The notes beneath the pieces are model-generated. The model saw only the letters and a list, made by a program, of their open reading frames with translations, was not told where the DNA came from and did not search any database. A stretch of 64,000 nt of DNA from an uncultured Spirochaetota bacterium (lineage in GTDB: Bacteria > Spirochaetota > Spirochaetia > SZUA-6 > Fen-1364): assembly GCA_963745235.1 (NCBI GenBank), contig CAVUXE010000035.1, positions 192,001 to 256,000 on the forward strand. Direction: 5' to 3'. Positions 23,016-55,987 of the stretch are shown here, piece by piece; position 1 is the first letter of the stretch, and each line of letters begins with the position of its first letter. The translations under genes were made by a program, and so were the position numbers.

Positions 23016-23088
23016 GGGCCGCTAGCTCAGCTGGTAGAGCAACAGCCTTTTAAGCTGTGGGTCGCCAGTTCGACTCTGGCGCGGCTCA
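23016..23088 (+). tRNA. tRNA-Lys (anticodon UUU), CCA not encoded
   Basis: Acceptor GGGCCGC/GCGGCTC+A, D-arm GCTCAGCTGGTAGAGC, anticodon arm ACAGC-CTTTTAA-GCTGT, T-arm GCCAG-TTCGACT-CTGGC. Confidence 0.97.
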
Positions 23089-41921: not shown

Positions 41922-42794
41922 CTAGTTCAGCCAGGTAATTTGAGGTTTTCTTCTCGGAAGCGTCCTGTGGTAAGTCACTTTCGGATAGCCTATTGCCAGG
42001 ACAGCCTGTGGGGCGCTCCCCTCTGGAACGCCAAGGCTGTCTCGCAACGACGTATTCCTGTCGAGCGCGAACTTCATGAAGCCCATCTGACAGGTGGCAA
42101 GACCGATTCGTCGGGCGGCGAGTTCTACGTTGTACAGGGCATGAATCGCGTTGTCTCGCGCCGAGCCATCGCTCTTCGGAGTGAGCGCGATCGCGACCGC
42201 AGGAGCTCGGAAGAAGATCGGTTCGTCCCCCGCGTCCTCGCGTGTCTTGAGCGTTGCAAGCTTCAGGGCGAATCCCTTCACCGCGGCGACATACTCCCGC
42301 CCTCTTGATGCGCGGAAGAACAGTTGAACCAGCGGGTTTCTCAGGAATCGCGACATCTTCGTGAGGAACAGCACCGTTCGCTTGCTCAGATCTTGAATCG
42401 TTTGCGGGTTGTCGACCACAAGCCAGTCGACGTTTTGGCTGTTGCTGCCAGTCGGGGCATACCTGCCGACTTCGAGAAGATCCCGTAAGGTCTCGCGCGG
42501 AATCGCGCTATTGCGAAAGGCGCGGGTAGATCGTCTTTCTTGAAACAATCCGACCAGGCTCTGGTAGCTCGGAAGAACTTCGAAGTCGATAGGCGGGCAA
42601 AGTGCAAGTGGATACTCGCTGTGGTTGATCGCGCCAACAGGGCACGCAGCAACGCAATGACCACACTTCCAACAGGAGTTGGACGCGGCCTGGGCGACGT
42701 TCTCTTCCGAGAGCTTGTACACGTGGGCGATGCACACGCGGCTGCATGCCCCGCACCCGTTGCAGATCTCCTTGTCGACGGCTATCTGAACCAT
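41922..42794 (-). CDS. Nitroreductase with N-terminal 2x[4Fe-4S] domain
   Basis: 'CNGCGACSRVC', 'CWKCGHCVAACP', 'RRSTRAF', 'APTGSNSQ'. Confidence 0.9.
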   Translation of the reverse strand: MVQIAVDKEICNGCGACSRVCIAHVYKLSEENVAQAASNSCWKCGHCVAACPVGAINHSEYPLALCPPIDFEVLPSYQSLVGLFQERRSTRAFRNSAIPRETLRDLLEVGRYAPTGSNSQNVDWLVVDNPQTIQDLSKRTVLFLTKMSRFLRNPLVQLFFRASRGREYVAAVKGFALKLATLKTREDAGDEPIFFRAPAVAIALTPKSDGSARDNAIHALYNVELAARRIGLATCQMGFMKFALDRNTSLRDSLGVPEGSAPQAVLAIGYPKVTYHRTLPRRKPQITWLN

Positions 42795-42889
42795 CACGTC
42801 CCTCCCGAATCGGTTCGCTTGTGAACACAACAGCCCGCGCAGCGACGTCAGGCGGTCCAAACGCGCCGCTGGGCAGGCTCCGTCAGACT

Positions 42890-43246
42890 CTACCTGACCT
42901 CGGCAAGGGCCTTCTGGTAGTCTCCCATTCTCCGCTGAAGTTCTTCTCCGACGAACGCGTCGATAACTCCAAAGTTGGGCACCAGCAGGGCGACACGGAT
43001 GTTTCGGCTCTCGAATTCCGGATCCATCTTTATCCTGGCCAGCTTGTCGCGGTCTCCGTGAACCAACAGGAAGCCACTCAAATCGCCGCCGATGTAGTCG
43101 AGGAATACGGCCTCGAAACTGTCGATCATTCGCTCTTGTTGTTTCCGCTTCCAGTACTCGGTGGCCTCGGCAAACGCCTTCACGGCCTTTTCTGCGAGGG
43201 CGGGCGTTGGGAAGCCCCAACGGATGAAAAGGGCACCTTTTGCCAT
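42890..43246 (-). CDS. Conserved-looking hypothetical protein (small alpha/beta)
   Basis: RBS GAGGAGG, normal coding composition, 'FLDYIGGDLSGFLLVHG'. Confidence 0.7.
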   Translation of the reverse strand: MAKGALFIRWGFPTPALAEKAVKAFAEATEYWKRKQQERMIDSFEAVFLDYIGGDLSGFLLVHGDRDKLARIKMDPEFESRNIRVALLVPNFGVIDAFVGEELQRRMGDYQKALAEVR

Positions 43247-43437
43247 AGCGTTCCTCCTCTGAAGGGTGACCGCCTGAGGTCAACTATCCGGCGTCTCGAA
43301 ACTGCTGTCAAGGAATTCCTGAAGGGGAGTCTCGCCCTCGCGAAGCTACCCACGATGCCGCGCGACGGATGCGACTATCCAGCAGATATGCGCGGCGAGA
43401 AGCGGCAGTAGGACTGAATGCGATCGTTGACCTGAAC

Positions 43438-44111: not shown

Positions 44112-44447
44112 TCAGCCCGCGCCCCCTGCTTGTCCCCGGGATTGCATTTCCATTTTGATCAGCTTGTCCAACTGCAGGGCTTTGAATATGCGGTAAACCC
44201 CTTCGCTGCATCCCTGGATCCGGAGAATCTTTCTGTTCTCAGCCAGTTTTCTGCTGAAGAAAATCAGCTTGCCTATTGCCGTTGAGTTGATTGTCGTGGT
44301 TCGCGAGAGATCAAGGGTTATTGTGAGAAAGCTCCCCGCGGCCAGCTCTACCATTCTTCGATGAAAATCCTCGACCGCTTCTCCGGCAAGTGGTCCGTCA
44401 ACCGCGAGGATGACTTCGACTCTTGAAACAGACTCCTGGCGAATCAT
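44112..44447 (-). CDS. STAS-domain (anti-sigma antagonist-like) protein
   Basis: 'LDLSRTTTINSTAIGKL', 'VYRIFKALQLDK'. Confidence 0.8.
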   Translation of the reverse strand: MIRQESVSRVEVILAVDGPLAGEAVEDFHRRMVELAAGSFLTITLDLSRTTTINSTAIGKLIFFSRKLAENRKILRIQGCSEGVYRIFKALQLDKLIKMEMQSRGQAGGAG

Positions 44448-44645: not shown

Positions 44646-47600
44646 ATGACCGAACCTGATGGAACGGCTAGGATAATTCCTCACTGGCTCATTCCCGCCT
44701 CCCTGCTGTTTCTCGTTGCCGGTGGCGCCTGGTTCTACGTCACCCAAAAAGACGCTCTGGAGGCGACGGCGAGAGAGAATCTCAACACGATTGCAAATCT
44801 GAAAGTGAACCAGATTGAGCAGTGGCGCGCCGAAAGGCTCGGGGATGCCGCTGAGCTGGTAGAGAGCTCCTTCAATTCCGCGGCGTTGTCCCGTTGGATG
44901 GACGGCACGCCGAGCGAAGGTAGCGACCAGATTCTCACATTGTTTCGTTCCTACCAGGCGTATGGCGGCTACGCCGATATTCTCCTGGTCGATGGCGAAG
45001 GGAAAGTCCGCCTCAGCCTGAGCGGGCATCCATGGGCGTCGGGCGAACAAACCACTCACACCCTTGCCGACGCGTTGCGCGACCATCGGCCGAAGCTGAG
45101 CGATCTCCAGGAGAACGCTGGCAGCCCGGGGCCCTACCTCGATGTCATTGCGCCCCTGTTCGCTGGGAAGGGAGAAACCATCCGCGCTGTGGGCGCGGTC
45201 CTCTTGCGCTGCGAGGCCAGGGATTTCCTCTATCCTCTGATCCAGTCATGGCCACTGTCGAGCCGGACCGCGGAAACCTTGCTTGTGAGGCGGGACGGAG
45301 ACAGCGTGCTGTACTTGAACGAGCTGCGCCAACAGCAACACACCGCGCTCGCCCTTCGGCTCCCGGTGAGCCGCACGGATCTGCCGGCAGTCGCCGCGGT
45401 AGCGGGAGGGGAAGGCGCGTTTTACGGGAAGGACTATCGCGGCGTCCCTGTCGTGGCGATGTTGAAAGCCATCCCCGGCTCGTCGTGGTTCATTGTCGCC
45501 AAGGAAGATGCCGCGGAGGTGCTGGCGGCCTGGCGGTTCCGCTCGCTTCTCATCCTGGCGCTGATCCTGGTGCTCGTTGCCGGGGCCGCTTCGGCCGTGG
45601 TGGCCATCTGGCAGCGCAACGAGAAGAATCGATATCGATCCCGGTTCGAGTCCGAGGCAATGCGACGCGTGGCGGAGGAGCGCTACCGGATCACGCTCTT
45701 GAGCGTCGGGGACGGAGTCATTGCCACTGATGCGGAAGGAAAGGTGCAGTTCGTGAACCCGGTTGCCGAGTCCCTGACCGGATGGCCGCAGGAAGATGCC
45801 CGCGGCAGACCGCTGGAAGAAGTCTTCCACATTCTGAATGAAGAAACCAGGCTGCCGGTTGAAAACCCGGTGAGCAGAGTGATTCGAGAAGGCGTGGTGG
45901 TGGGTCTCGCAAATCACACGCTGCTGGTAGACCGGGCGGGCAGGGAGCGCGCAATTGCGGACAGCGGCGCTCCCATCAGGGACCAGGCTGGGGGGACTGT
46001 CGGCGTGGTCCTGGTCTTTCGCGACATCACCGCGGAGCTGCGCACCCGGCGCGAGCGGGAAACGACGGTTGATCTGCTGCGACTGCTCAACACGCAGAGC
46101 GTGACGCACGAGCTGATTCGAGAGATAACGGGATTGATGCAGAGGTGGACCGGCTGCGAGGCGGTCGGTGTACGACTGAAGGAAGGGGACGATTTCCCGT
46201 ACTTCGAGACCCGCGGGTTCCCGGCGGATTTTGTCGAAGCAGAGAGGTATCTCTGTGAGCGCGACATCGGCGGGGAGCTGGTCCGGGATGAATCATTCAG
46301 CCCGGTTCTCCAGTGCATGTGCGGCACCGTGCTGCGCGGTCGCGTCGATTCTGGGCTTCCGTTTTTCACCCCGAAAGGAAGCTTCTTCACGAACAGCACC
46401 ACCGAGCTGCTGGCCACGACGTCGGAGCAGGACCGACAGGGCCGGACCCGCAACCGGTGCAACCGGGAAGGCTATGAATCTGTCGCTTTGATACCTCTGC
46501 AGAGCAGTGATGAAACACTTGGACTGCTTCAGCTGAACGACCGGGGCCGCAACCGATTCACCCCAGAGCTCATTTCATTTCTTGAAAGCGCCGCGGATCA
46601 GATCGCCATAGCGCTCGCGCAAAGGAAGGCGCTGTCCGACCGGAAAGAGAGTGAACAACGCTATCGCTCACTTTTCCAGAACATGTTGAACGGGTTTGCT
46701 TATTGCAGGATGCTCTTCACGGACGGCAGAGCGCAGGATTTCATCTACCTCGAGGTAAACAGCGCTTTCGAAACGCTGACAGGGTTGAAGAACGTCACCG
46801 GCAAAAAGGTGTCCGAGGTCATCCCCGGAATCCGGGAATCGGATCCCCAGCTCCTGGAAGCGTACGGGCGGGTTGCGCTGACCGGCCGACCCGAGCGATT
46901 CGAAACCTATCTCGCGGCATTGGATATGTGGTTTTCCATCTCCGTGTACAGACCGGGCGAGGAACATTTCGTGGCCATCTTCGATGTCATCACGGAGCGC
47001 AAGAAGATGGAGGCCGCGCATCAGCTCCTGGTCTCGGCCGTGGAGCAGGCCGCGGAGATGATCGTCATCACCGACCCCGCCGGGATGATTCAATACGTCA
47101 ATCCCGCGTTCGAGACCGTCACCGGCTACTCTTTTGACGAGGTGATCGGGAGCAATTCGCGCATTCTGCAAAGCGGGGAGCACGACAAGGATTTCTACAG
47201 GAACCTCTGGGAGACGATCATCGGCGGGAATACCTGGAAGGGTCATTTTATCAACAAGAAGAAGGACGGCACTCGCTATTCGGAGGACGTGGTCATATCA
47301 CCGGTGCGCGGCCCTGAGGGTGGCATCGTCAACTTCGTGGCGGTCAAGCGCGACAGCACGCGCGAGCACCTTCTGGAGGACCAGCTTCGACAGGCACAGA
47401 AAATGGAGTCAATCGGCAGGCTTGCCGGCGGGGTGGCGCACGATTTCAACAACATGCTTCAGGTGATCAGCAGCTACGTGGAGATCTCACTGGGGCAGAC
47501 GGAAGAAGGGGACCCCCTTCACCGAAACCTGCTGCAGGTGGGCAAGGCGGCTCGGCGCTCAGCGGACCTCGTCGGACAGCTGCTGGCCTTCGCGCGCAAG

Positions 47601-48518
47601 CAGACGGTGAGCCCCCGGGTCGTGGACGTGAACGAGGCCGTCGGCGGCGCGTTGCGGATGCTCCAGCGGCTCATTGGTGAGGACATCGACATTGCATGGA
47701 TGCCGGGCCATGACGTGGGGAAGGTCAGGATCGATCCTTCCCAGCTCGACCAGGTCCTGGCCAACCTCGCCGTCAACGCGCGTGACGCGATCAGTGGCGT
47801 GGGGAAGCTCACCATTGAGACTGAAAATATGACGATCGACGAAGAGTATCGTTCCGCGCACCCGGGCTTTGTGGCCGGAAACTTCGCGATGCTGGCGGTC
47901 AGCGACAACGGGAGCGGGATGAACCGAGAGACGCTCTCCCACCTGTTCGAGCCGTTTTTCACGACAAAGGCAGTGGGAAAGGGAACGGGGCTTGGCCTGG
48001 CCACCGTGTACGGCATCGTCAAGCAGAACAACGGCTTTATCAACGTGTACAGCGAGCCAGGGCGGGGATCGACATTCAGGATCTACCTGCCCCGGGTCGC
48101 CGAGCAGCCCGAAGATGCTCCGGCCGGAGGAGGCGCCCGAGCGATGCCCAAGGGAACCGAGACAATACTGGTGGTTGAAGACGAAGAGGCAATCCTGGAG
48201 ATCAGCAGAACGCTGCTCGAGAGTCTGGGGTATACGGTTATCAGTGCCGGCACTCCGATTGAGGCGCTTCAACAGGTTGCCGAGCTGAAGAAGCCCGTCC
48301 AGCTTTTGATCACCGACGTCGTGATGCCGCAGATGAACGGGCTCGAGCTGGCAAGACGGCTCGCTGAGACGAATCCCGGATTGAAATGGATATTCATGTC
48401 AGGCTATACGGCGGATGTCATTGCCCATCAGGGCATACTGGACAAGGGAGTTCATTTCATCTCAAAACCGTTTTCGATGAGCGACCTCGCGGAAAAAGTC
48501 CGCGAGGTGCTAGGCTGA
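44646..48518 (+). CDS. Hybrid sensor histidine kinase: TM-Cache-TM-PAS-GAF-PAS-PAS-HisKA-HATPase-REC
   Basis: 'AGGVAHDFNN', 'NLAVNARDA', 'EPFFTTK..GKGTGLGL', receiver 'ITDVVMP...FISKPF'. Confidence 0.93.
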   Translation: MTEPDGTARIIPHWLIPASLLFLVAGGAWFYVTQKDALEATARENLNTIANLKVNQIEQWRAERLGDAAELVESSFNSAALSRWMDGTPSEGSDQILTLFRSYQAYGGYADILLVDGEGKVRLSLSGHPWASGEQTTHTLADALRDHRPKLSDLQENAGSPGPYLDVIAPLFAGKGETIRAVGAVLLRCEARDFLYPLIQSWPLSSRTAETLLVRRDGDSVLYLNELRQQQHTALALRLPVSRTDLPAVAAVAGGEGAFYGKDYRGVPVVAMLKAIPGSSWFIVAKEDAAEVLAAWRFRSLLILALILVLVAGAASAVVAIWQRNEKNRYRSRFESEAMRRVAEERYRITLLSVGDGVIATDAEGKVQFVNPVAESLTGWPQEDARGRPLEEVFHILNEETRLPVENPVSRVIREGVVVGLANHTLLVDRAGRERAIADSGAPIRDQAGGTVGVVLVFRDITAELRTRRERETTVDLLRLLNTQSVTHELIREITGLMQRWTGCEAVGVRLKEGDDFPYFETRGFPADFVEAERYLCERDIGGELVRDESFSPVLQCMCGTVLRGRVDSGLPFFTPKGSFFTNSTTELLATTSEQDRQGRTRNRCNREGYESVALIPLQSSDETLGLLQLNDRGRNRFTPELISFLESAADQIAIALAQRKALSDRKESEQRYRSLFQNMLNGFAYCRMLFTDGRAQDFIYLEVNSAFETLTGLKNVTGKKVSEVIPGIRESDPQLLEAYGRVALTGRPERFETYLAALDMWFSISVYRPGEEHFVAIFDVITERKKMEAAHQLLVSAVEQAAEMIVITDPAGMIQYVNPAFETVTGYSFDEVIGSNSRILQSGEHDKDFYRNLWETIIGGNTWKGHFINKKKDGTRYSEDVVISPVRGPEGGIVNFVAVKRDSTREHLLEDQLRQAQKMESIGRLAGGVAHDFNNMLQVISSYVEISLGQTEEGDPLHRNLLQVGKAARRSADLVGQLLAFARKQTVSPRVVDVNEAVGGALRMLQRLIGEDIDIAWMPGHDVGKVRIDPSQLDQVLANLAVNARDAISGVGKLTIETENMTIDEEYRSAHPGFVAGNFAMLAVSDNGSGMNRETLSHLFEPFFTTKAVGKGTGLGLATVYGIVKQNNGFINVYSEPGRGSTFRIYLPRVAEQPEDAPAGGGARAMPKGTETILVVEDEEAILEISRTLLESLGYTVISAGTPIEALQQVAELKKPVQLLITDVVMPQMNGLELARRLAETNPGLKWIFMSGYTADVIAHQGILDKGVHFISKPFSMSDLAEKVREVLG

Positions 48519-48932: not shown

Positions 48933-49008
48933 GTTTCCGCCTTCCCCAAGCCAAGATTGACTGTCTTCCAACATGCTGTCAATGTCATCTGCGCAGGAGA
49001 GGACTCCC

Positions 49009-49857
49009 ATGGTCGTCGTTGACAGGGAAAAGTGCACCGGCTGCGGCTCGTGCGTGCAGATTTGTCACCAGCATTGCGTGTCGCTCGTCGAACAGAAGGT
49101 CGCGATCGAGCGCGTCCTGTGCAGCACCTGCACACAATGCGTTGCCATGTGCGCTCAGAAAGCTCTGTCCTGGGACGGAGCTTCCCCTGTGAGCTTTGAG
49201 CCCGCTCTCCTGCCGTCTGCCGCACAACTGGACGAGCTTTTCCGGGAACGGCGGACAATCAGGGACTTCGCTGACCGACAGGTGGACCGCGCGGCGCTGG
49301 AGGAAATTGTTTCCTATGGAGCCTGCGCTCCGACCCACAACTTTGATTTCAGATCCGTTATCATCGATGATCCTGCGCTCATTTCGCTCTTCGGCGAGGC
49401 CGCGTTTCGGTTCTCAAGGCGGATATATCGACTGGTGTTTCGCCCGCGGCTCATCCGCCTCCTGGTTCTCCTGGCTCCGCGCCCTGTGCGCGAAGAGTTC
49501 AGAAAGGCCGAGTCCAAGCTGCGCACAGTCATCGGCAGGGGGAAGGGCTTCGCTACCCTGCCGCCCGACATGGTCTGCATCGTGGGCGACAGGCGGATTC
49601 CCCTGTCCCTGGAAAGCGCGCAGTATGTCCTGTACACAATGGCCCTGTACGCGCAGGTGAAAGGGCTGGCATGCCGCAACCTCGTGGGGAACCAGATGAT
49701 TTTCAACGCGAACAGCAAGATACGTCGGGGACTGGGGCTGCAGAAACACGAGCGCATCTTCGCCGTCGCCGGCTTCGGTCATCCCGCGGTGAGGTTCAGG
49801 AACAAGGTCATGGGAAAGAAGATGCCGGTGCAGTGGAATGGGGCTTCGACCGGCTGA
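49009..49857 (+). CDS. Second nitroreductase with N-terminal 2x[4Fe-4S] domain
   Basis: 'CTGCGSCVQIC', 'CSTCTQCVAMC', 'RRTIRDF', 'APTHN'. Confidence 0.88.
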   Translation: MVVVDREKCTGCGSCVQICHQHCVSLVEQKVAIERVLCSTCTQCVAMCAQKALSWDGASPVSFEPALLPSAAQLDELFRERRTIRDFADRQVDRAALEEIVSYGACAPTHNFDFRSVIIDDPALISLFGEAAFRFSRRIYRLVFRPRLIRLLVLLAPRPVREEFRKAESKLRTVIGRGKGFATLPPDMVCIVGDRRIPLSLESAQYVLYTMALYAQVKGLACRNLVGNQMIFNANSKIRRGLGLQKHERIFAVAGFGHPAVRFRNKVMGKKMPVQWNGASTG

Positions 49858-49884
49858 GGCTCCCTTGGTGTCCCCGCGCGGGGC

Positions 49885-50274
49885 TCACCCGCGGTCATGG
49901 ATCTTGTATTCGAAATCGTAGGAATGCTTTCCGTCGATGATCGTGATGGTCATGGAACCCGTGAGGCCGACAAGCTCGCCGGCCCCGGAGTCCGGCACGA
50001 CGCTGATGGTCAGGTGCGGTTCGCCCCGATTCATGGTTCCGCTGTGCTGGAGCACGAAGGTGCCGCGGCGGCCATGCAGCGTCCCGCTCACGCGTTCCAT
50101 GGCCACGTAACCGACCGACCCCTCGATTTCCGTGCTCGCGCTCAGCATCTCGCCCTTGCTGACTGCTTCGAGGTCTCCCCGGAATTGTTTGTCGATTGAC
50201 ATCCTGCCGATGTACTCGTCTGAATCCTGGGGCACCAGCTTCACTTCAAACGAACCGCTCGCTCGATTTGCCAT
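49885..50274 (-). CDS. DUF3224-family protein
   Basis: 'GYVAMERVSGTLHGRRGTFVLQHSG...VVPDSGAGELVGLTG'. Confidence 0.85.
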   Translation of the reverse strand: MANRASGSFEVKLVPQDSDEYIGRMSIDKQFRGDLEAVSKGEMLSASTEIEGSVGYVAMERVSGTLHGRRGTFVLQHSGTMNRGEPHLTISVVPDSGAGELVGLTGSMTITIIDGKHSYDFEYKIHDRG

Positions 50275-51296
50275 ACAGTCAGGGATAATTTCGTCTGGCG
50301 ATCGATGAAAGTCAAACGCCTGTCGGCCGGAGGCCGCCGTGGTTCAGATGCGATCCGCCGGTACGGCCCGGCGCATGCAGGCCGGGGAAGGAGCCCCGCC
50401 TGGCTCACGATCTCCGGGACGCGATGCTCCCACTCGATGGCCATGATGTGGACGCCGGCCACCCCCTCGATGTCCTTCAGCTGCCGGATGATCTCGCAGC
50501 AGATCTTGATGCCCTCAGCCGCCCCTTTTTCCTTCGGGACCGCCTCCATCCGCTTCAGGATCGACTCGGGGATGATTATCCCGGGCACGTTCTCCACCAT
50601 GTATCGCGCCATGCGGAAGGACTTCAGGGGTATTACCCCGGCAAGGATCCGACACCTGGTGTGCACCCCGAGCGCCCTGACCTTTTCCATCCAGTCCGCG
50701 AAGAGGGCCACGTCGAACACGCATTGCGTCTGGGAGAAGTCCGCCCCCGCGTTGACTTTCTTTTCCAGGAGACGAGCCCGGAGCTCGTAGGGGAATGCAA
50801 ATGGATTTGCCGCCGTGCCGATGAACAGGGGAACTTTCCCGGACACCTCTTCGTCGTTCCCGAGCACGCGCTGCTCGTCCCGCAGCCTCTTTACGGCGGC
50901 GACGAGCTGGGTGGAATCTATGTCGTAGACCTTCTTGGCCCCCGGCTGGTCACCCAGGCTGTGGTGATCTCCGGAGATGCACAGGATGTTCTTCACGCCG
51001 AGCGCCGAGGCCCCGAGGATGTCGCTCTGGATTGCGATGCGGTTGCGGTCACGGCAGGTCATCTGCATGACAGGCTCGACGCCCTGCCTCACGAGGAGCG
51101 CCGCGCACGCGATGCTGGACATGTGGACCATTGCGCTCTGGTTGTCCGTGACGTTCACCGCGTCCACCGAGCCGCGAAGCTGGCCGGCTTTCTTCTCCAC
51201 AACGGCGGTGTCGGTGCCCCGGGGCGGTCCGAGCTCCGCTGTCACTGCAAAATGGCCCTCGGAAAGGACCTTCTCGAGGTTGCTTCCGGCTTTCAT
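50241..51296 (-). CDS. metF: Methylenetetrahydrofolate reductase, MetV-associated type (C-terminal tail possibly extended by an indel)
   Basis: 'VTAELGPPRG', 'NVTDNQ', 'MTCRDRNRIAIQSD', 'KKVNAGADFSQTQ', 'GVHIMA'; ATGA overlap with metV. Confidence 0.9.
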   Translation of the reverse strand: MKAGSNLEKVLSEGHFAVTAELGPPRGTDTAVVEKKAGQLRGSVDAVNVTDNQSAMVHMSSIACAALLVRQGVEPVMQMTCRDRNRIAIQSDILGASALGVKNILCISGDHHSLGDQPGAKKVYDIDSTQLVAAVKRLRDEQRVLGNDEEVSGKVPLFIGTAANPFAFPYELRARLLEKKVNAGADFSQTQCVFDVALFADWMEKVRALGVHTRCRILAGVIPLKSFRMARYMVENVPGIIIPESILKRMEAVPKEKGAAEGIKICCEIIRQLKDIEGVAGVHIMAIEWEHRVPEIVSQAGLLPRPACAGPYRRIASEPRRPPADRRLTFIDRQTKLSLTVWQIERAVRLK

Positions 51297-52015
51297 GCGC
51301 TGTCCTTGTCGAATCGCGGGTCGTAGCGCTCTTCGAATCCCCGCTGGACGAGCACTCCCTGTCCTCTTTCGAGCCATTCCTTCGGGGGCTGGATCTCCAT
51401 CATGTCGTCGACCCTTCCCTGGGCCAGCAGTCGGTCGTAGATTGCGTTCCACGCGCAGCGAAGGCCGCCGCCCAGCTCGCATTCGCCATCGGAGCGCGTG
51501 CCTCCGCACGGGCCGTTGAGGACTCCCTTCGAGCAGCGGGAGAGGGGGCAGATGCCTCCCGTGAGACCCAGGACGCACCTCTTGCAGGTGCGGCAGCGCT
51601 CTTCGTACAGCCCGACGTCGACGTCGACGCCGATGAACATTGTGTCAAGCGCCGGGAAAACGGGCTTGGTCGGGTACCTGTCTCCCAGGTTCTGCGTGCC
51701 CGCTCCACAGGCGCCGGAAAGGATGCAGTCCGCGTTCTGGACGAGGTCCGTGATGTCTTCCAGGAACTGCGCGTTGCATTGCCGCTCCACGGTGACGCAG
51801 GAGAACTGGAGGGGTACCTTCTCCCGGCGGGAAAGCTCCGTCAGCTCCTCGTTCAGGGCCAGGACTTCTCTCTGCCCTCCCGCCATGCAGACCGAGGTGC
51901 AGCCGCCGCAGCCGACTGTGAGCACCTGGAGGACGTCCCGCGGGCGCCGCTTCTCCTTGTAGCCCCGTATCAGCGCGAATATCTCTTCCAGGGGCTTTTG
52001 CTTTGCCTTTACCAT
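51293..52015 (-). CDS. metV: MTHFR small Zn/FeS subunit
   Basis: 'GCGGCTSVCMAGG', 'ERQC', 'ACGAG', 'CRTCKRCVLGLTGGICP', 'CSKGVLNGPCGG', 'CAW'. Confidence 0.88.
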   Translation of the reverse strand: MVKAKQKPLEEIFALIRGYKEKRRPRDVLQVLTVGCGGCTSVCMAGGQREVLALNEELTELSRREKVPLQFSCVTVERQCNAQFLEDITDLVQNADCILSGACGAGTQNLGDRYPTKPVFPALDTMFIGVDVDVGLYEERCRTCKRCVLGLTGGICPLSRCSKGVLNGPCGGTRSDGECELGGGLRCAWNAIYDRLLAQGRVDDMMEIQPPKEWLERGQGVLVQRGFEERYDPRFDKDSA

Positions 52016-52034
52016 TTCCGGTTCCTCCTCGGCG

Positions 52035-52427
52035 TCATGCGTTTCGCTCACCGTCGTACGTGCGGAAGACGCCTCTTTCTCTGCAGACGCTGCGGGCGCA
52101 GGCTATCAGTGACGGGATGCTGACCCCGACGGGGCAGTAGCAGCGCATGCACAGCACGCACCGGTCCCAGACCAGCTCATTGATCGCGCGATACTCCGCT
52201 TCGGACAACCTGCCTTTTTTCCGGTAGATCTTTCCGATCGAGTTGATGGCTTTGTACGAAGGGGTGTAGCCGGGGTCCCCGCCGCTTGACTGGAACTTGA
52301 AGCAGCTCTCAGCGCAAAGGGCGCAGTGCATGCACGCCTGGAGGGACAGCTGGATCATTTCCCTGTTCCTCGTGAGAACACGCGAGATGCGATGCGCCGT
52401 GATGGCGTCTTTCGTGGATTCGTTCAT
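52035..52427 (-). CDS. Stand-alone 4Fe-4S dicluster protein (TmcB/HmcF/DsrK N-terminal-like, no CCG domain)
   Basis: 'CMHCALCAESC', 'PSYK', 'CVLCMRCYCPVG'; ATGA overlap with the upstream gene. Confidence 0.85.
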   Translation of the reverse strand: MNESTKDAITAHRISRVLTRNREMIQLSLQACMHCALCAESCFKFQSSGGDPGYTPSYKAINSIGKIYRKKGRLSEAEYRAINELVWDRCVLCMRCYCPVGVSIPSLIACARSVCRERGVFRTYDGERNA

Positions 52428-53392
52428 GCGCCCCTTCCCCAGGCCCTTCTGGCCGGCTTCCATGCATACTCCCCCGAGGCGGAGAACCGGGAGAAAAGGA
52501 GGAACGGCATGTGGCCCAGCTTCGTGAAAGGGATTGCCAGGAGGACCGCATCTCCCGCGACGATGTGTCCAATCATCAGCCATCGTGAAGAGGAGACATG
52601 GTGGTAGAGCATCAGGCCCGTCACGAACGGGGCAAGGACCAGCACCAGGATCAGGTAGTCATACAAGGTTGAAAGCACGCGCACCCGCGGGACGGCGAGG
52701 CGGCGCACAAGGAAGAAGCCGCCGAGGAGGACAAGGATAATGGTAAGCCAGTCGGCGAGCTGCGCGGGGATGGCAGGCAGCCGCGCATGAATGCTGTGGT
52801 ACAGGATCATGTTGTGCGCGGGAAGGAGCAGGGGAACGAGAAACAGGAGGACGTGAAAGATGAGGCTGACCGTCCTCATTGTCGGGTGGGACAGGCTTTT
52901 CGGCCCGGCGGGTCCCACGAACAGGATTGACCGCAGGGATCGCCGCGCGGGAGGAGAAGCGGCCACGGCGGGTCGTGGGGAAAGGGGCCCACGCGCGGGC
53001 CGCCGTCTGGTGAGCCGTATGAACTGCCGCAGCCTGTACAGGATTCCCAGCGCAGCCGCCAGGAGGCAAAAGCGGAGAGCAGGCCCCGCCGCGAAGTTGT
53101 AGAGCGTGCCCGAAAGCTCCCGCTGCGTCCTGGGCGCTCGCGAGGCAGAGCCGGTGGCAGCCGTGCCGGCGCCGGGTGCCTCATGCTCTGCCCGTGAGGC
53201 CGACGTGGTTGCATCCACGGTGGCGCGGGAAGCGGAGGTCGGTCCTTCCTTCGGCGCTTCCGCGGTTGTCCTGGATGCCGAGGTCGTTGCGTCAGCCTGT
53301 TCCGCCCAGGAGAGGGCAGGGGTGATGCAGATCACGATTGCAAGAGCCCCCGGCAGCCAGAGCCCGCTCCGGGGGATGCGTTTGACGGGCAT
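52424..53392 (-). CDS. TmcC/HmcE/NarI-like di-haem cytochrome b membrane subunit with an N-terminal signal peptide and repeat arm
   Basis: 'LYNFAAGP', His pairs 'FHVLLFLVPLLLPAHN' and 'HIVAGDAVLLAIPFTKLGH', 'RRLAVPRVRVLSTLYDY'. Confidence 0.82.
   Translation of the reverse strand: MPVKRIPRSGLWLPGALAIVICITPALSWAEQADATTSASRTTAEAPKEGPTSASRATVDATTSASRAEHEAPGAGTAATGSASRAPRTQRELSGTLYNFAAGPALRFCLLAAALGILYRLRQFIRLTRRRPARGPLSPRPAVAASPPARRSLRSILFVGPAGPKSLSHPTMRTVSLIFHVLLFLVPLLLPAHNMILYHSIHARLPAIPAQLADWLTIILVLLGGFFLVRRLAVPRVRVLSTLYDYLILVLVLAPFVTGLMLYHHVSSSRWLMIGHIVAGDAVLLAIPFTKLGHMPFLLFSRFSASGEYAWKPARRAWGRGA
53138..53296 (-). repeat. Four peptide repeats ADATTSASR / EGPTSASR / VDATTSASR / AATGSASR
   Basis: Read directly in the translation, between the signal peptide and the first TM helix. 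Confidence 0.85.
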
Positions 53393-53399
53393 GCCTTGC

Positions 53400-54038
53400 C
53401 TACGCGCCGACGATGGCCTTGAGCTTCTCCGCCGCTGAGGCTGCATCTGCTGCATAGCCGTCAGCGCCGATCTCCCGGGCGTACTGGTCCGTGAGCGGCG
53501 CCCCGCCCACCAGGAACTGCACCTTGTCGCGAAGCCCTTCCTTCAGGAACCGGTCAATGACGTCTTTCATCCCCGTCATCGTCGTGGTGAGGAGGGCCGA
53601 CATCCCGATGGCTTTGGCGTCCGGGTTGTCCTTCAATCCCTGGAGAAACTTGTCCGCCGAGACATCGATCCCCAGGTCCACCACTTCCATTCCCGCTCCC
53701 TGCGCCATCATCTTCACGAGGTTCTTCCCGATGTCGTGCAGGTCTCCCTTCACCGTGCCGAGCAGCATCTTCCCGATTGGCTTTATGCCCGCTTTCACAA
53801 GCTCGGGGCGGAGGATCTCCATGCTCTGGTTCATGGCCCGGGCAGCGATGAGAACCTCGGGAATGTATACCTCATTTGCCTTGAACCGCCGGCCGATCTT
53901 CTCCATCCCGTCCAGGAGTCCCTGGTTCAGGATTTCCCCGGCGCTCTGCTTTGCCGCAAGAAGTGAGGATGTAAGCTCCTTCGCCGCGCTTGCGTTGCCC
54001 TTCTGGATTGCCTCAGAAAGCTCCTGATATGTCGCCAC
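53400..54038 (-). CDS. Methyltransferase-cognate corrinoid protein
   Basis: Four-helix cap 'YIPEVLIAARAM', B12 motif 'GDLHDIGKNLV', 'SALLTTT', 'VGGAP'; GTG start 54038. Confidence 0.92.
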   Translation of the reverse strand: MATYQELSEAIQKGNASAAKELTSSLLAAKQSAGEILNQGLLDGMEKIGRRFKANEVYIPEVLIAARAMNQSMEILRPELVKAGIKPIGKMLLGTVKGDLHDIGKNLVKMMAQGAGMEVVDLGIDVSADKFLQGLKDNPDAKAIGMSALLTTTMTGMKDVIDRFLKEGLRDKVQFLVGGAPLTDQYAREIGADGYAADAASAAEKLKAIVGA

Positions 54039-54188
54039 CGTCCACCTCTCTTTCGGGCGTTGTTCGTGTCCGTGTGGCTTCATCATGCATCCGGAATCAC
54101 CGGGCGTATTGTATGATTCGTGCCCGTTTTGTAAAATTCTGCTATTCGCCGGGTGAGGGATTTCCAGCGAGGCTCCTCAGCGTGAAGG

Positions 54189-54926
54189 CTATGCCTTTCG
54201 AGCCTTTGACCGCAGCCTCTTCTTGGGTGTCGCTGCCCTCTTTCGCGCGGCGGGGCGTACCGGCTTCGGAGACGCCAGCTTTTTCAGCTTCTTCTCGAGT
54301 GAACCCGAATATTCCTCCAGATGCAGGAGGACATTGAACACGTCCTCGAGCGCCCGGTCGTAGAGCTCGCGGGCGCGAGCGGGATTGGCTCTTGTCAGCT
54401 CCTTGACGTCGTGGAAGGCGACAACAGTGTTGTCCTCCGCGGCAACGATGTCCGCTGGCCTGCTTTTCTGGTGAAAAATGGCTGCCGAGCCGGCCATGGA
54501 TCCCTGCCGGTACTTGAGGCCGGGGAGTCCCGCGTTCTGGGCGGACCCGCGTACTATTTCGCAGGCCACCGCGATGCCCTCTCCCTTGTCGAGGATAACG
54601 TCTCCACGATTGAAAGTGCGTGTGTCGCCCGCGGCCTCCGCGCCCTCCACGGGCTGAGTGAACACCGAGCCGGATGTCAGGCCTCCGAGGCGCTCGTAGG
54701 ATCCTGAGACCTTGAAGATCTCCGGGTTCGCAAGCTGGTGCTTTCTGCCGTGCAGTGCGTCGTGCTTTATGAATGCCATGTTTTTGGCTATTTTCAAGGC
54801 TTCCGAGTCCACGTCCGCCTCGGTGACGCCCATGAAATTTTCCTTGACGATAAACTCCGACGCAAAGGTGCACCCGGGTTCCCGGCACCTGATCTTGTAT
54901 ACAGCTTCCTTGAGCCTGAAGGACAT
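54189..54926 (-). CDS. Cyclic-nucleotide-binding-like domain protein with putative N-terminal metal finger and basic tail
   Basis: 'FNRGDVILDKGE', 'IVRGSA', 'RPADIVAAED'; N-terminal CxxxxC...HxxxHxxxH. Confidence 0.65.
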   Translation of the reverse strand: MSFRLKEAVYKIRCREPGCTFASEFIVKENFMGVTEADVDSEALKIAKNMAFIKHDALHGRKHQLANPEIFKVSGSYERLGGLTSGSVFTQPVEGAEAAGDTRTFNRGDVILDKGEGIAVACEIVRGSAQNAGLPGLKYRQGSMAGSAAIFHQKSRPADIVAAEDNTVVAFHDVKELTRANPARARELYDRALEDVFNVLLHLEEYSGSLEKKLKKLASPKPVRPAARKRAATPKKRLRSKARKA

Positions 54927-55041
54927 GGTTGGCCTCCTGTCGATGCGACACTCAGAATTTCATATGAATACCGCGCCATTTTCCATCACATTTGAGGAAA
55001 AAGCAACGGTGAGCCGGGCTGACAAAAGACGGGATGCGCCG

Positions 55042-55987
55042 TTATCGCGCGCGGATGGCGTAGGGAAGCTGCCCGTGTATGGTGCCGGCAGAAGGATCCG
55101 CGCTGAACCGCCACAGTCGCACGGCCTCCACCACAGCTGCGTCGACCTCGTTGTATCCGGACGACGCTTCCACGTTGACGTCCCTGAGGAGCCCATCCGG
55201 GGTGAGCGTGAAAGTGACCAGGACGGTGAGACTGAGACCCTCCTTGCTCACCCACTGCGGGATCTTTGGCTGCGGAGACGCGAGGAGCTTGCGGGCCTTC
55301 GCTGCGCCCGGCTGGTCCCACTGGAAGCGCAGGTCACCCGTGCCGCCTCCACCCTGGCCCGCGTTTCCGCCTCCCCCGCCACCGCCTCCGGAGGCGGCTT
55401 CCTCCTGGCCTCCGGATCCCTGTGCCCCTGCCGCAAGAGACTTGTCCAGGGAGCCCAGGTCCAGCGCGCCCTTCGCGGGAGCCTGCCCTCCGCCTTCCAC
55501 CAGCACCCCGCGCGCGGGCGCGCCCGTCGGGGCTCCTCCGCCGGTTGCGGCGGCGCCCCCTTCCTGCGAGGCTTTCACGCGCGGAAACACAGGCTCCTGC
55601 ACGGGCGATGTCGCCGGCTGAGCGCCGCCGGCCTGGAAGTTGCTCGGTCCGGCCGCTCGAAAAGCGGGCCCGCTGGGTTGGGTCGGCCCCGTGCTCGTGC
55701 TCTGGCGAGGCGTCGGAATCACGAAACCCTGGCTGCTGCCGCCTCGGGACTGCGTCGTGGCGGTTGCCGCAACCTGGGGTTGTCCGGGCAGGAAGAGCGG
55801 GGCCGCTCAGCGTGCCCGGCACGAGGTCCACGCTCACCGGCGCGAGGTTCGACGGGCTCTGCAGGCGGACAATCGCAAACAATACGAAAACAAGAATGTG
55901 CAGGAGCACGGCGACGAGGAACGCCGCAAGGAGGCGTCTGGAATCGCTGTGCTGAGGGTCCATCATCTGCTGTGCTGCGCTGCTCAT
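55042..55987 (-). CDS. TonB-family energy transducer (frameshifted)
   Basis: TM 'AVLLHIL', Pro/Gly-rich linker, TonB_C 'VLVTFTLTPDG...VEASSGYNEVDAAVVEAVRLWRF'. Confidence 0.85.

Follow-up and report, generated by a model that had tools for sequence, protein, structure and literature searches.

The stretch of DNA analysed here (the window) comprises 64,000 nucleotides of an uncultured Spirochaetota genome (assembly GCA_963745235.1, contig CAVUXE010000035.1, positions 192,001 to 256,000). On its minus strand, running from 54038 to 50241, five intact co-directional open reading frames (ORFs) were observed, in which the two subunits of a methylene-tetrahydrofolate reductase (MTHFR) of the MetVF type are encoded together with a membrane cytochrome b, a small iron-sulfur (FeS) protein and a corrinoid protein. 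The first gene (GTG at 54038 to TAG at 53400) encodes a corrinoid (B12-binding) methyl-carrier protein of 212 aa and the second (ATG at 53392 to TGA at 52424) a TmcC/HmcE/NarI-like membrane cytochrome b of 322 aa, both assigned by Pfam and NCBIfam matches. The third (52427 to 52035) encodes a 2x[4Fe-4S] protein of 130 aa with matches to Fer4_8, Fer4_17 and the N-terminal region of TmcB/HmcF. The last two genes encode MetV (52015 to 51293; 240 aa; PF12225), the FeS/Zn small subunit of the reductase, and MetF (51296 to 50241; 351 aa; PF02219), its catalytic subunit. The corrinoid and cytochrome b genes are separated by a 7-nt gap, and a 19-nt gap containing a GGAGG ribosome-binding site lies between the FeS and MetV genes. 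ATGA overlaps were observed at the cytochrome b/FeS junction and again at the MetV/MetF junction.

Related loci were collected by a scan with one genome per species, which gave 133 confirmed loci. The best 80 (L001 etc.) were examined, and their genes were counted by tblastn with the window's proteins on the fetched flanks. When the source genome itself is meant it is called G000 (5.85 Mb in 104 contigs, 85.7% complete, 5.9% contamination).

MetF matched PF02219 over model positions 2-287 of 287 (141.5 bits; cut-off 24) and MetV matched PF12225 with 107.4 bits (cut-off 23). Both were aligned with their relatives (34 sequences each), and 13 Cys were invariant in MetV. The locus has the two features of a MetVF-type enzyme, namely the MetF domain and a Cys-rich MetV encoded directly upstream of metF. 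The partners of the Hdr- and RnfC2-type enzymes were also looked for, and no HdrA, HdrB, HdrC, MvhD (FlpD), CCG or RnfC domain was found among the 55 ORFs of the window. A profile search of PDB sequences gave no solved relative of MetV. At its C-terminus MetF is about 40 residues longer than its relatives (351 aa vs 307-310 aa), and this additional tail is absent in L001. This tail (50241-50375, minus strand) overlaps the start of the next gene (49885-50274, minus strand), a DUF3224 protein (139 bits) for which there was no listed match in L001-L003. The extension looks like the result of a lost stop codon.

The FeS protein matched Fer4_8 (34.1 bits) and Fer4_17 (27.8 bits). Its match to TmcB (74.6 bits; cut-off 735) covered model positions 16-137 of 430 only and its match to HmcF positions 51-152 of 457 only. 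It ends where the CCG domains of TmcB would start, and neither the length of TmcB (about 430 aa) nor its CCG part is found in it. Judging from these matches, the protein is homologous to the N-terminal ferredoxin-like part of TmcB, HmcF and DsrK, without the CCG domain. A total of 178 homologues were found, mostly in Spirochaetota metagenome-assembled genomes (MAGs), with lengths of 71-228 aa and, for the best 120 listed, identities of 58-97%. As so many homologues are of similar length, the protein represents a stable family of about 130 aa and not a local truncation. Nine Cys (C32, C35, C38, C42, C90, C93, C96, C98 and C115) were invariant in 34 FeS sequences. Among 1.84 billion cluster representatives, 11 matched at E ≤ 1e-30 and 97 at E ≤ 1e-10, and full-length proteins of TmcB/HmcF size (434-464 aa) surfaced only from about E 1e-23. 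Two proteins, P0128 (375 aa) and P0127 (220 aa), contain the FeS module at their C-terminal end (matches 254-372 and 95-216, respectively) and may be fusions with cytochrome b or another domain. An AlphaFold2 model of the FeS protein had a mean pLDDT of 73. When this model was compared with the PDB using Foldseek, no match at E ≤ 0.001 was obtained, and HdrC chains (5odc_C and others) ranked high solely among matches without significance. When PDB sequences were searched with the profile, a weak HdrC match (E 0.007) was likewise obtained, in addition to a spurious match to a repeat protein. Because the clusters are present and the catalytic CCG domain is absent, the FeS protein needs a redox partner, and MetV is its only universal cytoplasmic neighbour.

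For the cytochrome b, the best NCBIfam match was TmcC (NF045723; 146.2 bits; cut-off 240), together with HmcE (137.7 bits), and both scores are under the equivalog cut-offs. The corresponding proteins of the relatives scored 159-180 bits against TmcC. The Nitrate_red_gam model (PF02665) was passed marginally and with partial model coverage (24.7 bits vs 22.9), and the E. coli NarI chains were the only solved relatives found by sequence (E 1e-6). A hydropathy scan gave five hydrophobic helices, and the positive-inside (Lys/Arg-rich) loops place the N-terminus outside and the C-terminus inside. Four His (His180, His193, His276 and His294, numbered from the ATG at 53392) were invariant in an alignment of 16 homologues. 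They are located on helices 2 and 5, with His180 and His294 close to the cytoplasmic face and the other two, His193 and His276, close to the periplasmic one. Such a pairing by membrane face corresponds to a two-haem transmembrane wire, and the subunit is predicted to carry two haem b sites, one on each side of the membrane. At its N-terminus the protein is extended (53096..53392, minus strand). Residues 1-30 are signal-peptide-like (hydropathy segment 6-30), and residues 31-99 are a linker of 69 residues, rich in Ala/Ser/Thr, in which the [T/G]SASR repeat occurs four times and CxxCH is absent. Elsewhere in the source genome, a second, weak TmcC-like match (34 bits) was observed at G000:C52:173389-173853 (plus strand), about 14 kb from a cytochrome bd gene.

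The corrinoid protein contains both a cap and a Rossmann part (PF02607 B12-binding_2, 74.9 bits; PF02310 B12-binding, 90.1 bits), with the DxHxxG motif in its translation. Its best NCBIfam matches were MtgC (202.9; cut-off 370), TIGR02370 (177.8; cut-off 215.3) and MtbC (171.5; cut-off 350), and all three cut-offs were missed. An alternative start codon (ATG at 54086) would give a protein of 228 aa; the orthologues in L001 and L003 start at the position equivalent to the GTG. No corrinoid-dependent methyltransferase was found in the 64-kb window, and the genes for methyltransferase I (MT1) and for the methyl-tetrahydrofolate:corrinoid methyltransferase (MT2) are on other contigs of G000. The corrinoid gene was also considered as a core subunit and rejected, as it is present in just three of the 80 relatives' loci. 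In L002 (L002:5876-6097) it has shrunk to a 73-aa ORF with an internal deletion, and the four downstream genes are intact.

When the 80 loci were compared, the gene for cytochrome b was directly upstream of that for FeS in 79 of them; the exception, L024, is cut by the contig start. MetV was present in 75, and in the other five (L026, L031, L034, L047 and L077) a contig end truncates the locus. Of the 80 loci, 49 had MetF, 48 of these on the same strand. Three gene orders were observed: b-FeS-(c3)-MetV-MetF, c3-MetV-b-FeS-MetF and MetF-b-FeS-(c3)-MetV, where c3 is a cytochrome described below. The second of these orders is that of Desulforapulum autotrophicum (L062). About 28 of the 80 loci are labelled Spirochaetota, and the rest are mostly from Desulfobacterales (Desulforapulum autotrophicum, Desulfobacula, Desulfotignum and Desulfococcus among them). 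As the synteny recurs in 80 loci of other genomes, the arrangement is not a chance adjacency, and the occurrence of three gene orders indicates that the linkage has survived rearrangement across both Spirochaetota and Desulfobacterales. The conserved core consists of cytochrome b, FeS and MetV, usually with MetF.

These results can be set against a sequence-only reading of the same DNA, which had proposed a five-gene operon with the identities given above, a TmcB/HmcF-like dicluster protein that has no CCG part, and MetVF in the place of that part. The operon, whose stated end at 54038 agrees with the GTG of the corrinoid gene, and its identities were borne out by the coordinates and the hidden Markov model matches, and the dicluster protein by the N-terminal-only model match and the 178 homologues. 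The replacement of the CCG part by MetVF is a reasonable inference from an FeS gene that always stands beside those of cytochrome b and MetV. The conserved synteny, for which that reading had proposed a search, was found for cytochrome b, FeS and MetV in the 80 loci, in three gene orders. The corrinoid gene, which it had counted with the same module, does not belong there: only L001-L003 carry it, and in L002 it is degraded.

As the FeS protein always stands between the di-haem protein and MetV, the cluster-bearing input subunit of MetF, a four-subunit membrane-bound MTHFR would be the simplest reading of the conserved core. The neighbourhood could also be explained without a complex. In that case cytochrome b and FeS would serve some other soluble acceptor, such as ferredoxin or a thiol/disulfide protein, and MetVF would be a soluble, ferredoxin-dependent enzyme that is merely co-regulated with them. 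Purified MetVF from acetogens is soluble and uses reduced ferredoxin in vitro, according to two papers (PMC9430772; PMC8760232). MetF is not adjacent in 31 of the 80 loci, and the closest known subunits to the FeS protein and cytochrome b have partners that are not folate enzymes. We nevertheless consider such an arrangement distinctly unlikely, as MetV is found with cytochrome b and FeS wherever the locus is not truncated by a contig end (75/80), and this holds for three gene orders. In addition, the FeS protein has no catalytic domain, the codons of the b/FeS and MetV/MetF pairs overlap, and only 19 nt separate FeS from MetV. Complex prediction for MetF and for MetV with FeS as the partner, run with a 34-row alignment each and not including cytochrome b, gave scores of 0.15 and 0.09 (mark 0.32), which speak neither for nor against binding.

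In most relatives, a space of about 400 nt between FeS and MetV is occupied by a gene for a tetrahaem class III cytochrome c (c3), as observed in six annotated loci. Its best NCBIfam match is TmcA (77-84 bits vs a cut-off of 114 in the three relatives tested). An ORF with at least three CxxCH motifs was found within 1.5 kb on the strand of the module in 55 of the 80 loci. The 25 loci without such an ORF comprise 8 spirochaetal and 17 Desulfobacterota-labelled ones, several of them cut by contig ends. In L004, L011, L013, L026, L030 and L043 the cytochrome b itself consists of a signal peptide, an Asp-Ala-Thr-Ser-rich linker, a domain with four CxxCH and the membrane domain, and in the two cases tested (L004 and L013) the fused haem domain matches TmcA. 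In the window, L001, L005, L007 and L010 the signal peptide and linker are kept; the haem domain and the separate c3 gene are gone. What is left in the window's cytochrome b, the signal peptide and linker, can thus be interpreted as a vestige of a tetrahaem c3 domain that was once fused to it.

When a maximum-likelihood tree was drawn for concatenated FeS, MetV and MetF (34 rows), the eight c3-less rows fell at three places inside the clade with fused c3, and well-supported branches force three c3 changes on this tree. The c3 loss therefore happened at least three times, and the c3-less form is found in eight species-level genomes. The genome-wide content agrees with this pattern: class III cytochrome c was found in 0/3 genomes with a c3-less module (G000, G001 and G002) and in 3/3 genomes with a c3 module, in 2-3 copies each. 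TmcA is absent from both the window's operon and G000. These comparisons show that the window's form is a derived Tmc-like module that has lost the separate c3 gene and also the c3 domain once fused to cytochrome b. Among the other loci, L052 (a Myxococcota-labelled MAG) has the order MetF-b-FeS-MetV followed by a 558-aa ORF with 16 CxxCH motifs (L052:8019-9695); here a multihaem cytochrome of HmcA size stands instead of the small c3. Two Desulfobacula-labelled MAGs (L045:26-1519 and L080:731-1609, the latter on the minus strand) have an additional MetF, which is divergent (25-26% identical to that of the window) and is encoded a few kb upstream of the module and on the opposite strand, and L045 also has a divergent MetV (36%).

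Loss on this scale could mean that what remains of a Tmc-like locus is decaying here and no longer functional. In favour of this are the loss of both c-haem modules, the abnormal C-terminal extension of MetF and the degraded corrinoid gene of L002. However, all five ORFs of the window are intact, every haem-ligand His and cluster Cys is retained, and a form that has arisen at least three times and is found in eight species-level genomes is hardly expected of a ruin. The ratio of nonsynonymous to synonymous substitution rates (dN/dS), calculated in pairs with the three closest relatives (L001-L003), was 0.04-0.26 over all five genes, values that are rough as dS in these pairs is about 0.6-1.3. 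By gene, the ratio was 0.04 for the corrinoid protein (intact copies), 0.19-0.26 for cytochrome b, 0.12-0.20 for FeS, 0.13-0.23 for MetV and 0.08-0.10 for MetF. As this is purifying selection, the reduced form is maintained and not decaying, and we give decay almost no credence. The sequence-only reading had named a deletion from a larger Tmc locus as the finding that would go against its proposal. A deletion did take place, in that the relatives have a TmcA-type c3 which is lost here; what it left is no dead remnant and is under purifying selection.

The content of the source genome was compared with that of the genomes of L001, L007, L012, L018 and L011, so that six module-bearing spirochaetes were covered. 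No CdhC/acetyl-CoA synthase was found in G000, and there was no convincing match in the five relatives' genomes (0/5; one weak match of 35 bits). No gene of the Wood-Ljungdahl pathway was located within about 5 kb of the module in six annotated loci. The idea that the module marks Wood-Ljungdahl acetogenesis in spirochaetes was rejected, as CdhC/acetyl-CoA synthase is absent in G000 and in 4/5 relatives.

Genes of methyl transfer and one-carbon oxidation were observed in G000. Three genes of the MttB family are present, and no corrinoid gene was found in the annotated flanks of any of them. Only two B12-binding_2 proteins were found in the genome, that of the operon and an MtgC-like one about 95 kb upstream of the window start. 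The genes glyA, MT2 (334 bits vs a cut-off of 259) and folD form a cluster, and the same contig also holds one MttB gene and fhs. In this cluster (G000:C9:90277-96993, equal to L092:4277-10993) glyA-MT2-folD is followed by ORFs of 431 and 729 aa without an NCBIfam match, the MttB gene is about 9 kb beyond this region and fhs is at 179953 of the contig. The MT2 domain was found in 6/6 genomes, in four over the cut-off and in two just under it (252-256 bits, inside 798-aa ORFs), and Fhs and the cytochrome c assembly protein were each found in 6/6. A RACo/RamA-type corrinoid activase is also encoded in G000. Its match is split over two adjacent frames (G000:C15:59778-60519; model positions 2-173 and 170-249), which suggests a frameshift or an assembly error. 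Cytochrome bd (CydA) is present in 6/6 genomes, with two copies in G000 (C52:158214 and C84:81223).

Cells that make methionine need an MTHFR, and the MetF of the window is a normal PF02219 protein. The operon could therefore be read as the housekeeping MTHFR for methionine synthesis, with the membrane and corrinoid genes beside it being incidental. Three MTHFR matches were found in G000, however: this operon, a fusion with homocysteine S-methyltransferase and a weak third one. The fusion lies directly beside metE and can cover methionine synthesis. Moreover, a match to the FeS protein at E ≤ 1e-25 was found in just 19 of 401 sampled Spirochaetota genomes (17/335 of high quality; 13/153 genera), which is not the distribution of a housekeeping gene, and we regard such a role as very improbable.

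The energetics were considered from published values, and the statements cited here and below are those made in passages of the papers named. The methylene-tetrahydrofolate (methylene-THF)/methyl-THF couple is at -200 mV (PMC9430772; PMC6895022), NADH at -320 mV (PMC6895022) and menaquinone at -74 mV (PMC8578096). Since the couple is at -200 mV and NADH at -320 mV, the oxidation of methyl-THF cannot use NAD+. Transfer from methyl-THF to menaquinone yields about -24 kJ/mol, as calculated from the published potentials. In acetogens, four classes of MTHFR are described (MetF, MetVF, MetVF-RnfC2 and MetFV-HdrABC-MvhD), all four with soluble partners (PMC9430772). The MetVF type is described there as a flavin and FeS enzyme that reduces methylene-THF with reduced ferredoxin or viologen. 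According to a review, genome sequences had provided no evidence that MTHFR is located at the membrane (PMC8578096). In Thermacetogenium phaeum, an NAD+-independent oxidation of methyl-THF was measured, which reached its highest activity in the membrane fraction with benzyl viologen and a lower one with AQDS (anthraquinone-2,6-disulfonate), a quinone analogue, and that passage knows of no dedicated membrane subunit (PMC6895022). The genome paper of D. autotrophicum HRM2 has 'MetF-ABC' in a figure legend and mentions 'two TmcBCA clusters', with no explanation in its text passages. In the text passages of the literature covered, no description was found of MetVF encoded with a TmcC/HmcE-like subunit.

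Taken together, we lean somewhat towards a MetVF that is bound to the membrane and oxidises methyl-THF whose methyl groups come from demethylation, a proposal for which comparative genomics alone provides the whole case. MttB-family methyltransferases would move methyl groups from methylated amines onto the corrinoid protein of the operon, and the methyl-THF:corrinoid methyltransferase would transfer them to THF. MetF would then carry out the methylene-THF/methyl-THF reaction in the cytoplasm, the membrane-bound enzyme oxidising methyl-THF at about -200 mV, and MetV would pass electrons to (or take them from) the small 2x[4Fe-4S] protein. MetVF would thus take the place of the CCG domain of TmcB, with the FeS protein corresponding to the N-terminal cluster part of TmcB/HmcF and presumably docking on the five-helix TmcC/HmcE/NarI-type subunit with its two b haems. 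In the c3-bearing relatives, the outer end of this wire would be the periplasmic cytochrome c3. For the window, the partner of the b haems is most likely a quinone of the membrane and not a periplasmic cytochrome, because the c3 end is gone and cytochrome bd is present. The carbon would continue via FolD and Fhs to formate, and the electrons would enter the respiratory chain, for example via cytochrome bd. The oxidative direction is probable because there is no acetyl-CoA synthase, a separate assimilatory MTHFR is encoded, the genes for demethylation and C1 oxidation are present as a full set and a corrinoid gene heads the operon.

Several points weigh against this proposal. We infer both the binding of the four proteins to one another and the binding of haem from the sequences, and the scores of cytochrome b and FeS are far under the Tmc equivalog cut-offs. 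MetF was not found within the fetched flanks in the 31 loci mentioned above, and MttB is missing in 2/5 relatives' genomes (present in 3/5). The corrinoid gene is intact in L001 and L003, degraded in L002 and absent next to the module in the other 77 loci; as it is confined to the clade of the window, the methyl-donor link would be lineage-specific at best. MenB was over its cut-off in 0/6 module-bearing genomes and MqnA was not found in G000. Four MenA-like UbiA prenyltransferases are encoded there (C99:198307, C9:8091, C8:1916 and C89:6056), all under the cut-offs, and it is solely from cytochrome bd that a quinol pool can be deduced. Absences from G000 are provisional, given its completeness and contamination. 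With regard to the sequence-only reading, which had suggested looking elsewhere in the genome for methyltransferases, folD, fhs and quinone biosynthesis, the first part was successful (three MttB, MT2 by folD and glyA, fhs and the RamA-like activase) and the second was not, so that the quinone link it had drawn gained no support from MenB (0/6 genomes) or MqnA (absent from G000).

The topology of the membrane subunit is a further point against oxidation. In NarGHI, electron flow from the periplasmic to the cytoplasmic side through the NarI-type subunit builds membrane potential. With a NarI-like topology, flow from the cytoplasm to a quinone on the periplasmic side would work against the membrane potential. 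The same complex could instead be run reductively, with a quinol or another membrane donor reducing methylene-THF, either as an electron sink or as an energy-conserving step. Electron flow from periplasm to cytoplasm would then build membrane potential, and the c3-containing relatives could take electrons from the periplasm. Such a role has been proposed for the membranes of Sporomusa ovata, which catalyse H2-dependent methylene-THF reduction, and in the passages describing this the membrane-integral partner of MetVF was not identified (PMC9430772). For the window, on the other hand, reduction seems unlikely. G000 has no c3 cytochrome and no acetyl-CoA synthase to consume methyl-THF, and the step from menaquinol (-74 mV) to methylene-THF (-200 mV) is uphill. 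Methionine synthesis is already served by the separate metE-linked MTHFR. The operon is headed by a gene for a methyl-carrying corrinoid protein, and the genome has demethylation genes.

If the oxidative proposal is extended, peat and soil spirochaetes would have a pared-down, cytochrome-c-free methyl-THF:quinone oxidoreductase, a fifth, membrane-integral class of MTHFR. With no Wood-Ljungdahl pathway, these bacteria would respire methyl groups obtained via corrinoid proteins from quaternary amines or from different methylated substrates, and would pass the electrons to a quinol oxidase such as cytochrome bd. The c3-bearing parent family in Desulfobacterales and other spirochaetes would then be the long-sought encoded membrane link of the MTHFR step. 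This extension is tentative, and we put it forward as a possibility that is more doubtful than otherwise. For decades there has been debate on how the methylene-THF/methyl-THF step, at about -200 mV, is linked to the conservation of energy, or how it is made feasible as an oxidation. An operon family that joins MetVF to a membrane di-haem subunit makes this old question testable, also in cultured Desulfobacterales. The window offers a natural minimal version of it, free of cytochrome c, with a methyl-carrier gene attached and in a host that lacks acetyl-CoA synthase, a combination which suggests that spirochaetes of peat and soil respire methyl groups. It also provides a simple target of four subunits for expression and structure work.

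The host is a soil or peat spirochaete. DNA nearly identical to the window was found in soil, peat and wetland metagenome runs from 12 studies, with at least half of the sampled words in 4 runs. When two DNA runs were compared, pieces at least 99% alike made up 13/16 (X1) and 6/12 (X3). In two peat metatranscriptome libraries, both from the same study, contigs matched 53704-54119, the region of the corrinoid gene, with zero mismatches; this documents presence in an RNA library and not proven transcription, as DNA carry-over is possible. The other four operon genes had no cover in these two RNA runs, which says nothing on their expression.

Upstream of the operon, a sigma-70-like promoter match (TTTACA, 16-nt spacer, TACAAT; 10/12 positions) was found at 54108..54135 on the minus strand, about 70 nt upstream of the GTG of the corrinoid gene. 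It is the sole such match in 49700-55100, where 0.9 are expected by chance, so that its position alone is suggestive. An Rfam scan of the whole window revealed neither a cobalamin riboswitch nor any further known RNA ahead of the operon; the sole Rfam family match was a single tRNA gene (23016-23088, plus strand; 67 bits). Further upstream, a gene at 54189..54926 (minus strand) encodes a 245-aa protein with a weak cNMP-binding-like domain (PF00027; 18.8 bits, under the cut-off of 27.5) and a Lys/Arg/Pro-rich C-terminal tail. The gap to the corrinoid gene is about 100-150 nt, with the promoter-like site in between, and among the 80 loci this gene is conserved upstream of the operon only in L001-L003 (68-75% identity). 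The protein is a candidate for a regulator of the operon that is specific to this lineage. Other genes of the window include a hybrid sensor kinase of 1290 aa with PAS, GAF, HATPase and receiver domains (44646-48518, plus strand) and, just upstream on the opposite strand, a STAS-domain protein (44112-44447). Two proteins with ferredoxin-like 4Fe-4S motifs and a nitroreductase domain (41922-43283, minus strand; 48973-49857, plus strand) are encoded less than 10 kb from the operon.

When the module was compared with known systems, the closest was Tmc/Hmc of Desulfovibrio (TmcABCD, the type II cytochrome c3 transmembrane complex, and the related HmcABCDEF). The cytochrome b of the window best matches TmcC and HmcE, and its FeS protein best matches the N-terminal cluster region of TmcB/HmcF. 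The two genes are adjacent, as tmcC and tmcB are in Tmc. The relatives carry a TmcA-like tetrahaem c3, whereas the window's version has no cytochrome c, and the CCG domains are absent from its FeS protein, with MetV and MetF encoded in their place. Identity with the Tmc complex was rejected, as none of the Tmc equivalog cut-offs was reached and both TmcA and the CCG domain are lacking. From its gene content, the module may work like a Tmc complex joined to MetVF.

With the acetogen MetVF, the window shares the metV-metF order, the overlapping stop and start codons and the Cys-rich MetV. It differs in that no rnfC2, hdrABC or mvhD is found in the 64 kb and that an integral cytochrome b and a small FeS protein are encoded instead. 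NarI, which belongs to the same superfamily as DsrM and HdrE, shares with the cytochrome b the PF02665 match, the five helices and a pair of His on each of helices 2 and 5. Those of helix 5 are 18 residues apart in both proteins. The partner of NarI is NarH/NarG, in contrast to the MetVF-linked FeS protein here, and the window's protein adds a signal peptide and a low-complexity linker. For T. phaeum and S. ovata the same physiology has been proposed, in which the methyl-THF/methylene-THF couple is tied to membrane electron carriers. The link was ascribed there to Hdr-like proteins; here a membrane subunit, known from genes alone, is in the operon itself.

In comparison with the methylated-amine systems (MtgB/MtgC/MtgA and MttB/MttC), the corrinoid protein of the window matches MtgC and MtbC best, under the family cut-offs, and G000 likewise has three MttB-family genes, MT2 and a RamA-like activase. 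The corrinoid gene adjoins MetVF, however, and not MT1 or MT2. Overall, the locus appears to be a new combination of two known kinds of system, the Tmc-type membrane wire and MetVF. New in the window are the cytochrome-c-free variant, which arose by repeated loss and retains a signal peptide and linker as vestiges, the corrinoid gene heading the operon and the context of a genome without acetyl-CoA synthase.

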